DNA from: Escherichia coli
GTDB lineage: Bacteria > Pseudomonadota > Gammaproteobacteria > Enterobacterales > Enterobacteriaceae
NCBI RefSeq assembly: GCF_017348835.2
Contig: NZ_CP071375.1
DNA length: 64,000 nucleotides
Strand: one strand, 5' to 3'
Shown: positions 28,404-58,600 of the stretch, one piece after another
How the letters are laid out: every line of letters begins with the position of its first letter
Numbering within the stretch: position 1 is the first letter of the stretch
Notes under the pieces: model-generated
The model's database searches: none
Seen by the model: only the letters and a program-made list of their open reading frames with translations
Told to the model about the DNA's origin: nothing
Translations under genes and position numbers: made by a program

Positions 28404-29129
28404 TTAATGCAGGATTTTCGCGAGGAAGTCTTTTGCGCGGTCCGATTTCGGATCATCGAAGAAAGCGTCTTTCGGCGAGTCTTCGACAATTTTACCCTCG
28501 TCCATAAAGATCACCCGATTCGCCACTTTACGGGCAAAGCCCATTTCGTGGGTCACCACCATCATGGTCATTCCTTCGTTCGCCAGTTCGACCATTACGT
28601 CCAGCACTTCGTTGATCATCTCCGGATCCAGCGCCGATGTCGGTTCGTCGAACAGCATGGCAATAGGATCCATACACAATGCGCGAGCGATCGCCACACG
28701 CTGCTGCTGACCGCCGGAAAGCTGCGCCGGAAATTTATTGGCATGTGCGGAAAGTCCCACGCGCTCCAGCAATTTCAATGCTTTTTCACGAGCCGGCGCT
28801 TTATCGCGTTTAAGCACTTTCACCTGCGCCAGGGTCAGGTTTTCGATAATCGACAGATGAGGGAACAGCTCGAAATGTTGGAATACCATCCCGACGCGAG
28901 AACGCAGCTTTGCCAGATCGGTTTTCTTGTCGTTAACCACGATACCATCGACGGTGATTTCACCTTGCTGCACTGGTTCGAGGCCGTTGACGGTTTTAAT
29001 CAGCGTTGATTTGCCGGAACCAGACGGGCCGCAAACCACCACTACTTCGCCTTTTTTCACTTCGGTTGAGCAGTCGGTCAGCACCTGAAAGTGACCATAC
29101 CATTTTGAAACATTTTTCAGGGTAATCAT
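28404..29129 (-). CDS. gltL: Glutamate/aspartate ABC transporter ATP-binding protein
   Basis: 241 aa; Walker A (GPSGSGKST), ABC signature (LSGGQQQR). Confidence 0.95.
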
Positions 29130-29803
29130 TATGCTGTCCTTCTTTTCAAGTAGCTGACCAACAACGACGCGCTAAGGCTAATAACGAAATAAACAAATCC
29201 GGCAAACAGGATCATCTCAACCTGCGTACCATCACGCTCACCAATGGTTGAGGCGGTACGGAAGAAATCGGCCAGAGATAACACATACACCAGTGAGGTA
29301 TCCTGGAACAGTACGATGCCCTGAGTGAGCAGCAGCGGCACCATCGCGCGGAACGCCTGCGGCAGAATAATCAGTTTCATCGACTGCCAGTGAGTCATTC
29401 CCAACGCCAGCGCGGCGCTCGACTGACCACGAGAAATACTTTGGATACCAGCACGGATAATCTCTGAATAGTAGGCCGCTTCAAACATCGAAAACGCCAC
29501 CATCGCCGAAATTAAACGGATATCATTTTTTGGCGATAATCCCAGCACGTTTTGCAGAAAACCCGGCACGATCAGGTAAAACCACAGCAAAACCATAACT
29601 AAAGGAATCGAGCGGAATACGTTAACGTAGGCTTTGGCAAACCACGCTACGGGCGCAAAGCTGGACAAGCGCATCACCGCCAGCATGGTGCCCCACAAAA
29701 TACCAATCACGACTGCCGTGACGGTGATTTTCAGCGTGATCACCAGCCCGTCGAGCAGATATGGCAGGGAAGGGACAATGGAACTCCAGTCAAACTCGTA
29801 CAT
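29129..29803 (-). CDS. gltK: Glutamate/aspartate ABC transporter permease
   Basis: 224-aa polytopic permease; overlaps gltL and gltJ ends. Confidence 0.93.
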
Positions 29804-30543
29804 TATTTGCCCCCCATGTTGCCAGGCAGGCGAACTTTACGTTCAACCAGCGTCATCACCAGCATGATAAAAGCGTTAATCAACACATACGCTAGCGTAA
29901 TGGCGGTAAACGACTCCCAGGCATGGGCCGAGTAATCGAGTAATTTACCCGCCTGCGCCGCCATATCCACCAGGCCGATAGTCGAGGCGATGGCGGAGTT
30001 TTTCACCAGGTTCATCATCTCTGAGGTCATCGGCGGGACGATAACGCGATAAGCATTAGGCAGCAGTACGTAGCGGTAAGCTTGCGGTAGCGTCAGACCC
30101 ATCGCCAGCGCGGCATTTTTTTGCCCGCGCGGCAGCGACTGAATCGCGGCGCGTACCTGTTCGCAAACACGGGCGGCGGTAAACAGCCCCAGGCAGAGCA
30201 TGGATGAAAGGAAAAACTGAATATTGGGATCCAGCTCGGCCTTAAACCACATGCCGATTTTCTCCGGCAGCAGCTCCGGGATCACCAGATACCAGGTAAA
30301 GAATTGCACAATCAACGGCACGTTGCGGAACAGTTCGACATACAACGTACCCAGACCGGAGAGAAAACGGTTTGGAACGGTACGTAAAATGCCGAAAAAT
30401 GAACCGACGAGGAAAGCGATAATCCAGGCGCAGATCGACAAAGCGATCGTCACCTGAAAACCACTCCAGATCCAACCAAGATAGGTGGTGTTGCCGAACG
30501 GGGCTTGTTGTAAAAAAATACCCCAGTTCCAGTCTATAGACAT
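29803..30543 (-). CDS. gltJ: Glutamate/aspartate ABC transporter permease
   Basis: 246-aa permease. Confidence 0.93.
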
Positions 30544-30554
30544 AAATCTACTCC

Positions 30555-30717
30555 AGAAAAAAGAGGGTAGCAGCGTTAACTGCTACCCTCGAAGATTGTT
30601 ACCCAGCGTATTGCGGTTTTCAGGCCCGATGGGGAACGACCATCAGGCGTATAGTCTGTCCGTGCTACGTAACAATCGAGAGGGCTAGAATTTCCGCCCC
30701 TGGTTCTTGTAATTAGT
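30555..30717 (-). ncRNA. sroC: SroC sRNA, processed from the gltI-gltJ spacer (GcvB sponge)
   Basis: Position between gltI and gltJ with an intrinsic terminator at its 3' end; boundaries placed from remembered K-12 layout, not computed. Confidence 0.55.
30556..30592 (-). terminator. Rho-independent terminator/attenuator after gltI (3' end of sroC)
   Basis: Minus-strand hairpin gagggtagcag..ctgctaccctc followed by a U6 run (A6 on + at 30556-30561). Confidence 0.8.
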
Positions 30718-31621
30718 TCAGTGCCTTGTCATTCGGTTCTTTGAACAGTGCTTTCATTTCGTCTGACAGTTCGAAATTCATGTTCAGGTTTTTCGGCGGA
30801 ATGGGATTTTTGAACCATTTATCAAACCATTTTTCCGCTTCACCGGAGGTCTGCACCTGAGCGATGGTGTCATCCATCAGCTTTTTGAACTGCGGATCGT
30901 CTTTACGCAACATGCAACCGTAGGCTTCCTGAGACTGTGGCTTGCCGACGATATCCCAGTTGTCTGGTTTCTTCGCTTTCGCACGTTCACCGGCCAGCAG
31001 AGCATCATCCATCATAAAGGCAACGGCACGACCGCTTTCCAGGGTACGGAAAGAGTCACCGTGATCTTTGGCGCTGATGATGCGCATATTCATTTTTTGC
31101 TCTTCATTCAGTTTGTTGAGCAAAACTTCAGAGGTAGTGCCGGAAGTGACGACTACGGCTTTGCCTTTCAGGTCGGCAAAATCTTTGATATCGCCGCCCT
31201 TTTTGGTCAACAGGCGCGTACCGACCACGAAAATAGTGTCAGAGAAAGCCGCCTGTTTTTGGCGTTCGACGTTGTTGGTGGTAGAACCACATTCAAAATC
31301 GAAAGTGCCGTTTTGCAGAAGAGGAATACGGTTTTGTGAGGTGATCGGAATCAGTTTCACCTGCAAGTCCGGTTTGTTGAGTTTCTTTTTCACTGCTTCA
31401 ACAATGGCGTTGGAGTAATCCTGCGAGTAACCCACCACTTTTTGCTGATTGTCGTAATAAGAGAAAGGTACTGAAGATTCACGGTGACCGACGACAATCA
31501 CACCGTTTTTGGCGATTTTGTCCAGCGTACTACCTGCTGCCGGGGCGGCGTCATCTGCCTGTGCCAGGCCTGCGGAAAGCGCCAGGGCCAGGATTGCTGT
31601 GGCAGGTTTACGTAATTGCAT
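30713..31621 (-). CDS. gltI: Glutamate/aspartate periplasmic binding protein
   Basis: Start at the internal ATG 31621 (MQLRKPATAILALALSAGLAQA signal peptide, 302 aa); ORF-track start 31696 is too far upstream. Confidence 0.93.
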   Translation of the reverse strand: MQLRKPATAILALALSAGLAQADDAAPAAGSTLDKIAKNGVIVVGHRESSVPFSYYDNQQKVVGYSQDYSNAIVEAVKKKLNKPDLQVKLIPITSQNRIPLLQNGTFDFECGSTTNNVERQKQAAFSDTIFVVGTRLLTKKGGDIKDFADLKGKAVVVTSGTTSEVLLNKLNEEQKMNMRIISAKDHGDSFRTLESGRAVAFMMDDALLAGERAKAKKPDNWDIVGKPQSQEAYGCMLRKDDPQFKKLMDDTIAQVQTSGEAEKWFDKWFKNPIPPKNLNMNFELSDEMKALFKEPNDKALN

Positions 31622-32017
31622 ATCCAACTCCTTTATCTTCTGCGTTAAAAACGCATGGATACTCGTTGTGAGTGTTTGTGTTGTTATCATCTGCAACTTT
31701 ATTGTGCAGTGTTGTGCTTGTTAGGTAACATTTAGTTTGGCTAAATGTAAAGATAATGCTGTTTTATTGTTTGTTTTTGCGAGATGCGCCGCACCATTCC
31801 GAAGCAAAATTCTTAAAATGCACTCTTTTGGTGCTACCGATGGATTGCTGTGGTGCAACCGGGTTGTACTGATGCTGGTTCAAGCTTTGCCTTGTATAAC
31901 AAAGCAATAGATGTGCCAAAGTTGGATAGGAGAATATTGTTATCCGGATAATGCACTGATGCCGCATCCGGTGAGCGTGCCGAAATATGGGATGTATTCC
32001 GGCACGATAAGAAGGGA

Positions 32018-39104: not shown

Positions 39105-39179
39105 TGGCTGGGGTACGAGGATTCGAACCTCGGAATGCCGGAATCAGAATCCGGTGCCTTACCGCTTGGCGATACCCCA
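39105..39179 (-). tRNA. glnX: tRNA-Gln (anticodon CUG)
   Basis: 75 nt; reverse complement reads UGGGGUAUCGCCAAGCGG...CCAGCCA; anticodon loop read by eye. Confidence 0.9.
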
Positions 39180-39216
39180 ACTGGGTGCACTTACAAGGTA
39201 AGCGTCTTGAATAAAT

Positions 39217-39291
39217 TGGCTGGGGTACGAGGATTCGAACCTCGGAATGCCGGAATCAGAATCCGGTGCCTTACCGCTTGGCGATACCCCA
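39217..39291 (-). tRNA. glnV: tRNA-Gln (anticodon CUG)
   Basis: Identical copy of the 39105..39179 gene. Confidence 0.9.
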
Positions 39292-39339
39292 ACAAATTGG
39301 TTTTTGAATTTGCCGAACATATTCGACACATTCAGAATT

Positions 39340-39416
39340 TGGTGGCTACGACGGGATTCGAACCTGTGACCCCATCATTATGAGTGATGTGCTCTAACCA
39401 ACTGAGCTACGTAGCC
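39340..39416 (-). tRNA. metU: Elongator tRNA-Met (anticodon CAU)
   Basis: 77 nt; GGCUACGUAGCUCAGUUGG...CCACCA; anticodon CAU. Confidence 0.9.
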
Positions 39417-39431
39417 AGATTGTTTCTTCGA

Positions 39432-39506
39432 TGGCTGGGGTACCTGGATTCGAACCAGGGAATGCCGGTATCAAAAACCGGTGCCTTACCGCTTGGCGAT
39501 ACCCCA
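39432..39506 (-). tRNA. glnW: tRNA-Gln (anticodon UUG)
   Basis: 75 nt; same scaffold as glnX but anticodon loop UUUUGAU. Confidence 0.9.
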
Positions 39507-39540
39507 ATAACCGGGCGGTGAACCGCTTACTCGAAGAAGA

Positions 39541-39615
39541 TGGCTGGGGTACCTGGATTCGAACCAGGGAATGCCGGTATCAAAAACCGGTGCCTTACCG
39601 CTTGGCGATACCCCA
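39541..39615 (-). tRNA. glnU: tRNA-Gln (anticodon UUG)
   Basis: Identical copy of the 39432..39506 gene. Confidence 0.9.
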
Positions 39616-39638
39616 TCCGTACAACGCTTTCTGGTGAA

Positions 39639-39723
39639 TGGTGCGGGAGGCGAGACTTGAACTCGCACACCTTGCGGCGCCAGAACCTAAATCTGGTGCG
39701 TCTACCAATTTCGCCACTCCCGC
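39639..39723 (-). tRNA. leuW: tRNA-Leu (anticodon UAG), long variable arm
   Basis: 85 nt; GCGGGAGUGGCGAAAUUGG...CCCGCACCA. Confidence 0.9.
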
Positions 39724-39731
39724 AAAAAAGA

Positions 39732-39808
39732 TGGTGGCTACGACGGGATTCGAACCTGTGACCCCATCATTATGAGTGATGTGCTCTAACCAACTGAGCT
39801 ACGTAGCC
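39732..39808 (-). tRNA. metT: Elongator tRNA-Met (anticodon CAU)
   Basis: 77 nt; identical copy of the 39340..39416 gene; first gene of the operon. Confidence 0.9.
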
Positions 39809-42098: not shown

Positions 42099-42198
42099 TG
42101 CCGGATGCGGCGTGAACGCCTTATTCGGCCTACAAAAGCATGAAAATTCAATAAATTGCAGGAGCTGCGTAGGCCTGATAAGCGTAGCGCATCAGGCA
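42099..42198. repeat. REP/BIME cluster between asnB and umpH
   Basis: tgccggatgcggcgtgaacgccttattcggcctac and gtaggcctgataagcgtagcgcatcaggca palindromic units. Confidence 0.7.
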
Positions 42199-57919: not shown

Positions 57920-58600
57920 CAAATGCGCCTATAAGGCTCTCTTACCAGCCGCGCCCTAACAGGCGCACACGATCTGACATTTGCATCCAACTTCGTTACT
58001 TACGGCCCGTAAACGGGCTGCCCGGATAGGGAATCGATAACTGCTCTACCATTTTATCCTCTTCAAGCTGGTGCTTTATGTAATCCTGTATCTTCGCCGT
58101 GTTCTTACCCACTGTATCGACGTAGTACCCTCTGCACCAGAACTCCCTGTTCCTGTATTTGAATTTCAAATCACCAAACTGCTCGTAAAGCATCAGACTG
58201 CTTTTCCCTTCCAGATATCCCATAAAGCCGGATACGCTCATTTTGGGCGGGATCTCCACAAGCATATGGATATGATCTGCACAGCATTCAGCTTCCAGAA
58301 TCCGTACACTTTTCCACTCACACAGCTTTCTCAAAATACTGCCTATTGCTCTACGCTTCTCTCTGTAGAACACCTGTCTTCGATATTTTGGCGCAAAAAC
58401 TATGTGATATTTACAGTTCCATCGGGTGTGCGCTAAGCTCTTTTCGTTCCCCATTGGGACCCCCTTTTGATTTCTTGTTTGACACTTGCAGTTGCCAGAC
58501 CGCAAGGTGTTTTAACAAATCAAAAGGGGTTTTAATAACTGGCTCAAAGCTGAAAGCTTTCCGGAACCCCCAGCCTAGCTGGGGGTTTTCTGTGCACAAG
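57900..58600 (-). mobile_element. IS200-family insertion sequence (IS200/IS605 family), boundaries approximate
   Basis: Contains an IS200-type Y1 transposase gene; the 5' side has a perfect hairpin (58566-58588) and a long-range inverted repeat (58461-58471 / 58527-58537) around the tnpA RBS; size is about 0.7 kb. Confidence 0.6.
57996..58454 (-). CDS. tnpA: IS200-type Y1 (HUH) transposase TnpA
   Basis: 152 aa from MGNEKSLAHTRWNCKYHIVFAPKYRR...; HUH motif HIHMLV and catalytic Tyr region; closely resembles Salmonella IS200 TnpA by recall. Confidence 0.85.
   Translation of the reverse strand: MGNEKSLAHTRWNCKYHIVFAPKYRRQVFYREKRRAIGSILRKLCEWKSVRILEAECCADHIHMLVEIPPKMSVSGFMGYLEGKSSLMLYEQFGDLKFKYRNREFWCRGYYVDTVGKNTAKIQDYIKHQLEEDKMVEQLSIPYPGSPFTGRK

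Follow-up and report, generated by a model that had tools for sequence, protein, structure and literature searches.

The interval between gltI and gltJ in the gltIJKL operon of Escherichia coli raises the question of whether it is an inert spacer, a regulatory element acting on the genes downstream, or a gene for a small RNA in its own right. We examined it in a 64,000-nt stretch of E. coli DNA (the window), for which a first-pass annotation made from the letters alone had described a 169-bp gltI-gltJ spacer encoding a terminator-ended RNA consistent with SroC. The spacer is present as described: on the minus strand, the gltI stop codon (TAA, 30713-30715) and the gltJ start (ATG, 30543-30541) enclose 169 nt at 30544-30712. 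The operon and its leader are laid out as follows.

31685-31665, minus strand: predicted CA-rich GcvB target in the gltI leader (from sequence; within the feature 31656-31699)
30713-31621, minus strand: gltI, 909 nt, periplasmic glutamate/aspartate-binding protein and parental gene of SroC (open reading frame; NCBIfam NF008063)
29803-30554, minus strand: gltJ with its ribosome-binding site (open reading frame; annotation of E. coli PE164)
29129-29803, minus strand: gltK (open reading frame; NCBIfam NF011687)
28404-29129, minus strand: gltL (open reading frame; named gltL at the matching position in E. coli PE164)

GltI scores 668 bits against NF008063 (cut-off 375) and GltK 479 bits against NF011687 (cut-off 318), while the best NCBIfam matches of GltL are ABC-transporter ATP-binding proteins, none of them at the curated cut-off. 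The names gltI, gltJ, gltK and gltL all stand in the record of E. coli PE164, whose DNA identity to the window was established over a 501-nt query (30400-30900) that covers the spacer, the gltI 3' end and the gltJ start. Upstream of gltI, the segment 31656-31699 (minus strand) is predicted to form a duplex of -40.4 kcal/mol with the GU-rich region of GcvB (nucleotides 56-95), and gltI is a reported GcvB target (PMC4474525). K-12 carries an IS5D element between lnt and gltI (record L001, 4852-6046), which is absent from the window (31622-32017) and from PE164; the gltI promoter region of the window is thus uninterrupted.

The covariance-model search that the first-pass annotation had proposed, run over the whole window, returned a match to the Rfam sroC family (RF00369) at 30555-30717 on the minus strand, scoring 170.8 bits where the gathering score is 45 (E-value 7e-36). 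The match covers the model completely (positions 1-163 of 163), and the sroC gene annotated in K-12 (b4763) lies at the equivalent position, with 162 of 163 bases identical. The full-length match, the shared position with b4763 and the gltI-sroC-gltJKL synteny together identify the locus as sroC, which bears out the earlier proposal; the boundaries it had given after the K-12 layout, 30555-30717, proved exact. Its description of the RNA as intergenic holds in so far as SroC fills the gltI-gltJ spacer, but the first five nucleotides of the RNA (ACUAA) are the last five of the gltI reading frame, and in the K-12 annotation sroC likewise overlaps the final 5 nt of gltI. The sole difference from K-12 is at 30687, where U replaces C and one G-C pair of stem-loop 1 becomes G-U; the change weakens that one pair and falls outside both of the GcvB-pairing sites described below.

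We are close to certain that 30555-30717 on the minus strand is the sroC gene of E. coli, and that the published account of its processing and of its action as a sponge of GcvB explains the locus; none of the results speaks against this reading. The gene and its mechanism are already known, and nothing here is new; a known small RNA could nevertheless be located to the exact base from sequence. Of 5426 complete E. coli genomes, 5421 carry the gene, and the O157:H7 strain PV15-279 has an identical 163-nt SroC sequence; the window thus comes from an E. coli other than K-12. Of the records checked, the K-12 reference NC_000913.3 alone annotates sroC, and in the sampled non-K-12 RefSeq genomes of E. 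coli the automatic NCBI annotation gives only gltI and gltJ under the sroC region. Flagging sroC therefore closes an annotation gap, not a knowledge gap.

The 163-nt RNA has a minimum free energy (MFE) of -64.1 kcal/mol (z = -5.86 against 200 shuffles), and its predicted fold consists of three hairpins, namely stem-loop 1, a long stem-loop 2 and the terminator. We assign its parts as follows, with numbering along SroC in brackets.

30555-30717, minus strand: sroC, encoding the 163-nt SroC small RNA (Rfam RF00369; equivalence to K-12 b4763)
30701-30717, minus strand: A-rich 5' segment ACUAAUUACAAGAACCA, unpaired in the MFE structure
30681-30700, minus strand: stem-loop 1 (18-37), which holds the difference at 30687 (MFE fold)
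30594-30677, minus strand: stem-loop 2 (41-124), a long irregular hairpin with both GcvB-pairing sites (Rfam model and MFE)
30654-30661, minus strand: GcvB-pairing site BS1, GGACAGAC (57-64), complementary to GcvB 156-163 (GUCUGUCC)
30633-30639, minus strand: GcvB-pairing site BS2, UCGUUCC (79-85), in the apical loop of stem-loop 2, complementary to GcvB 13-19 (GGAACGA)
30557-30590, minus strand: Rho-independent terminator, the SroC 3' end and expected Hfq-binding module (hairpin and U6)

The 5' end at 30717 would be the RNase E site, as placed by homology to the K-12 annotation. No sigma-70-like promoter was found on the minus strand near 30717-30800, inside the gltI end, which would fit an RNA made by processing and not by transcription of its own, though absence in a simple consensus scan of this kind is weak evidence. 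Stem-loop 1 starts 12 nt after the gltI stop codon, which is about as far as a terminating ribosome usually reaches or slightly farther, and a ribosome halted at the stop codon might block this hairpin.

The strong minus-strand terminator that had been claimed right before gltJ is also present. Its hairpin, GAGGGUAGCAGU-UAAC-GCUGCUACCCUC (30590-30563), has 12 pairs (7 of them G-C) around a loop of 4, with a folding energy of -22.5 kcal/mol, and six uridines (UUUUUU, 30562-30557) follow directly after the stem. The terminator ends 13 nt short of the start codon of gltJ, whose ribosome-binding site (GGAG, 30554-30551) comes directly after it; gltJ is expressed only from read-through transcripts. 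Our terminator scan was lax, with 13 sites against 5.9 expected by chance in 5 kb, and the sroC terminator is by far the strongest among them.

As gcvB lies outside the window, pairing was computed against the K-12 GcvB; GcvB was found in 5425 of 5426 E. coli genomes and is at least 99% identical in 5389. BS1 forms an 8-nt Watson-Crick run with it (-15.3 kcal/mol) and BS2 a 7-nt run (-10.9 kcal/mol). The distance from BS1 to BS2 is 14 nt, as reported, BS1 matches the site validated by compensatory mutation, and the pairing of both sites agrees with the published probing data (PMC4474525). Complementarity of 7-8 nt is common by chance, since shuffled SroC sequences give a mean of 1.46 runs of at least 7 nt and 44% of the shuffles give two; the case for the GcvB sites therefore rests on their conservation and on the published mutational tests. 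The predicted duplex of the whole molecules does not discriminate either: it reaches -78.8 kcal/mol, the shuffles average -72.1, and 29 of the 200 shuffles do as well.

To follow the conservation of these parts we took one genome per species and located gltJ by a back-translated motif of the GltJ start, taking the sequence upstream with no SroC criterion; this yielded 120 gltJ loci. The alignment comprises 78 distinct spacer sequences from Enterobacteriaceae and Erwiniaceae, aligned throughout. BS1 (GGACAGAC) is invariant in all 78, and in BS2 the CGUUCC is invariant while the first U becomes C in a few species. The helices around them vary under compensation: changes on both sides were seen in 14 of 28 helix pairs over the 78 sequences, and compensatory changes affect 8 of 9 pairs in the apical stem of stem-loop 2, 3 of 5 in its basal stem and 3 of 7 in stem-loop 1. 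Paired cells make up 95.7% of the total, compared with 86.3% in column shuffles (none of 500 reaches the observed value) and 41-60% with slid partners; the covariation score is 0.280, against 0.109 in the shuffles and 0.048-0.081 with slid partners. This is the pattern of a structured RNA whose single-stranded parts are recognised by sequence, since BS1 and BS2 stay fixed while the adjoining helices drift compensatorily, which argues that selection acts on those unpaired sequences.

The terminator is kept in all 78 homologues, as far as sequence evidence goes. Beyond these two families the picture changes: the last hairpin of the Serratia, Rahnella and Ewingella spacers differs in sequence and is followed by no U-run, and the spacers of Serratia and Rahnella retain just one of the two GcvB sites. 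None of the Yersiniaceae and Erwiniaceae spacers tested by Rfam search reached the gathering threshold, and the Serratia and Rahnella spacers tested went undetected, which fits the report that the Yersinia SroC homologue is truncated and inactive (PMC4474525). Near-threshold RF00369 scores were obtained for Pantoea (41.8 bits; record L028, 1117-1265) and for the unclassified Enterobacterales bacterium CwR94 (41.5 bits; record L123, 3755-3919), against the required 45; despite these scores both can be aligned at BS1, BS2, the basal stem and the terminator. In some Erwinia spacers BS1 is followed by an additional hairpin of ~45 nt, and the Rfam model fails to detect these spacers altogether. The Rfam sroC model is narrower than the real range of the family.

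In several species the SroC region contains insertions of ~125 nt, giving spacers of 284-336 nt compared with ~160 nt. In sequence the insertions are similar to the enterobacterial repetitive intergenic consensus, as with GTGAATCCCCGGGAGC...AAGCGACTGGGGTGAAC in Yokenella. They lie between the gltI stop codon and stem-loop 1 (records L056, L064, L084 and L113), in the descending strand of stem-loop 2 (L012 and L112) or upstream in a Serratia spacer (L077), and these differing sites suggest independent events. Such insertions would lengthen or disrupt SroC in the species that carry them.

A stable, Hfq-bound SroC of ~160 nt is known in Salmonella and in E. coli K-12 (PMC4474525, PMC10250213, PMC11347164). 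The Salmonella RNA is a stable fragment that carries a 5'-monophosphate and lacks a separate transcription start; the conserved terminator in the gltI-gltJ spacer supplies its 3' end, and its 5' end is made by RNase E with Hfq in a 5'-monophosphate-dependent manner (PMC4474525). The terminator is leaky, and one promoter gives rise to both a short gltI mRNA and the full operon mRNA (PMC4474525). [quoted passage not shown] In E. coli, the half-life of GcvB drops through SroC from more than 16 min to 3.8 min, irrespective of the phosphorylation of the SroC 5' end (PMC10250213). Among the RNase E sites of the gltI 3' region the strongest coincides exactly with the SroC 5' end, transcripts either end at sroC or run on downstream, and GcvB itself promotes the production of SroC (PMC11347164). 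The first-pass terms 'terminator-ended' and 'processed product' agree with this leaky Rho-independent 3' end and RNase E-made 5' end (PMC4474525, PMC11347164). Further, minor roles reported for SroC are the sponging of MgrR and the repression of flagellar mRNA (PMC9438474). Our candidate MgrR seed, the best run found (SroC 98-105, AAAACCGC, with MgrR 87-94), is unconvincing, as it falls in the terminator stem of MgrR.

The sequence elements that this published mechanism requires are in place in the window, while the transcript ends, the dependence on RNase E and Hfq and the decay of GcvB are taken from the literature. On this basis, transcription would start from a single gltI promoter and stop in part at the spacer terminator, giving a gltI-sroC transcript, with the polymerases that read through producing the full gltIJKL messenger. 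An Hfq-guided, 5'-monophosphate-dependent cut by RNase E just before the gltI stop codon would then free a 5'-monophosphorylated RNA of ~160 nt that is very stable and bound by Hfq. Its two stem-loop 2 sites, BS1 and BS2, would pair with two distant parts of GcvB and expose GcvB to RNase E, with SroC surviving the encounter. Lower GcvB levels would in turn derepress many genes of amino-acid and peptide transport and metabolism, gltI among them, closing a positive loop. SroC is a textbook case of an mRNA end that doubles as a regulator, and it ties glutamate/aspartate uptake to the GcvB regulon of amino-acid transport and metabolism.

A reading with no function for the RNA has some attractions. 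The terminator could serve only to set the ratio of GltI to GltJKL, an excess of binding protein over membrane parts being usual for ABC transporters (PMC4474525), and SroC, a processing product with no apparent promoter of its own, would then be an inert leftover, a structured decay fragment resistant to nucleases. Such a fragment would hardly keep the single-stranded BS1 and the BS2 loop invariant or nearly so across Enterobacteriaceae and Erwiniaceae while the neighbouring helices drift, and the stabilisation of GcvB upon deletion or point mutation of sroC speaks against it directly. [quoted passage not shown] Conservation could in principle also stem from a protein-coding gene on the other strand, as a plus-strand reading frame of 67 codons with a GTG start does exist at 30485-30688, antisense to SroC and to the gltJ start. 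We attach practically no weight to it. The frame is a mechanical one that overlaps the gltJ start in antisense and is unannotated in both K-12 and PE164; across relatives, its span is broken by indels that are not multiples of three (10 nt in the terminator loop between Escherichia and Citrobacter, and others of 1-8 nt), and variation tracks base-pairing rather than codon position. We therefore rejected it as a gene on the strength of its frame-breaking indels and pairing-driven variation.

The first-pass annotation had further called the locus an attenuator. Taken loosely, as a leaky terminator within an operon (PMC4474525, PMC11347164), the term stands; taken strictly it is unlikely to, for there is no conserved antiterminator (26 of 78), no leader open reading frame and no Rfam cis-regulatory match. 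In a regulated attenuator, alternative structures or a bound factor would choose between termination, which yields SroC and gltI only, and read-through into gltJKL, with SroC as by-product or output. The published view is instead that constitutive partial termination sets the GltI:GltJKL ratio, although the same authors, noting that nucleotides outside BS1 and BS2 are conserved, raise a cis element or trans factor controlling termination (PMC4474525); beyond that speculation, our literature search for regulated read-through at the sroC terminator found nothing. The window itself offers a candidate switch, as an antiterminator-like helix forms in the MFE of the nascent RNA between GCCCUC (30685-30680), the 3' arm of stem-loop 1, and GAGGGU (30590-30585), the 5' arm of the terminator. 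However, the helix occurs with at least 4 pairs in just 26 of 78 species, and other Escherichia, one further E. coli among them, lack it in their nascent MFE; the stability it adds has a median of 2.5 kcal/mol, whereas the completed terminator is worth ~16 kcal/mol; and the partner segments of the helix do not vary, so that covariation cannot support it. We rejected a structural antiterminator as a feature of the family on this distribution, its appearance in the MFE of the window notwithstanding. No minus-strand open reading frame of at least 20 codons that could encode a leader peptide, and no match to Rfam cis-regulatory families, was found in the gltI-gltJ spacer. That GcvB raises SroC levels would fit regulated attenuation, but the effect has been ascribed to RNase E cleavage (PMC11347164). 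The invariance of the terminator stem in all 78 sequences remains in favour of regulated attenuation, which we consider unlikely, a minor and unproven possibility.

That invariance deserves attention for its own sake. The core stem GGGUAGC/GCUACCC is the same in every one of the 78 homologues, an unusual constancy for a terminator beside helices that drift freely. The stem sequence of the SroC terminator is also that of an internal hairpin stem of GcvB (GGUAGC-AAA-GCUACC and U6, GcvB 114-128); the sharing could be fortuitous, could reflect an Hfq-binding module common to both RNAs, or could mark an additional contact. There is a slim chance that the frozen stem constitutes a third SroC-GcvB contact, made by strand exchange between hairpins, or the site of a sequence-specific factor that sets the frequency of termination. 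Were such a factor to act, the site would be a true regulated attenuator that balances SroC release against gltJKL expression.

With SroC as a processed sponge of GcvB, the locus takes its place among known systems. The K-12 SroC (b4763) agrees with it in locus, length (163 nt), three-hairpin fold, spacing of BS1 and BS2 (14 nt) and terminator, differing by one base, and the Salmonella Typhimurium SroC is the same system with numbering offset by 3 nt. CpxQ, SdhX, RbsZ and 3'ETS-leuZ are also released by RNase E, end in the parental terminator, carry a 5'-monophosphate and are bound by Hfq (PMC9438474, PMC10250213), and RbsZ and 3'ETS-leuZ resemble SroC in sponging another small RNA (bioRxiv 10.1101/2025.09.11.675593). 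Unlike those 3'-end small RNAs, SroC arises at an internal, leaky terminator of a polycistronic operon and not at the last gene; it further differs from other 3'-end small RNAs in that its main target is itself a small RNA, which is destroyed catalytically while SroC escapes degradation. With the trp, his and pyrBI attenuators and with riboswitch platforms the locus shares an intrinsic terminator ahead of downstream genes that a fraction of polymerases passes. In contrast to these classical attenuators, sroC lies between cistrons and not in a leader, its terminated product is itself the regulator, and a conserved antiterminator, a leader peptide and a known aptamer were not found at sroC.

Other structured RNAs were detected elsewhere in the window. 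The minus strand at 58464-58587 gives a full-length match to Rfam STnc490, an Hfq-binding RNA (146.4 bits; gathering score 56); in K-12 this position corresponds to the pgm-ybfP spacer, which carries no annotation. A match to the Rfam cspA thermoregulator (134.3 bits against 78) at 972-1420 on the plus strand runs through the frame of a cold-shock protein, probably cspE with its leader, judged by the K-12 position relative to gltI. At 42134-42176 on the plus strand there is a match to the small RNA ES036 (CssrF), just above threshold (42.3 bits against 37.6). Seven tRNA genes are clustered within 700 nt at 39108-39808 on the minus strand, and Enterobacterales bacterium CwR94 has a similar tRNA cluster about as far from its glt operon (record L123, 12288-12966).
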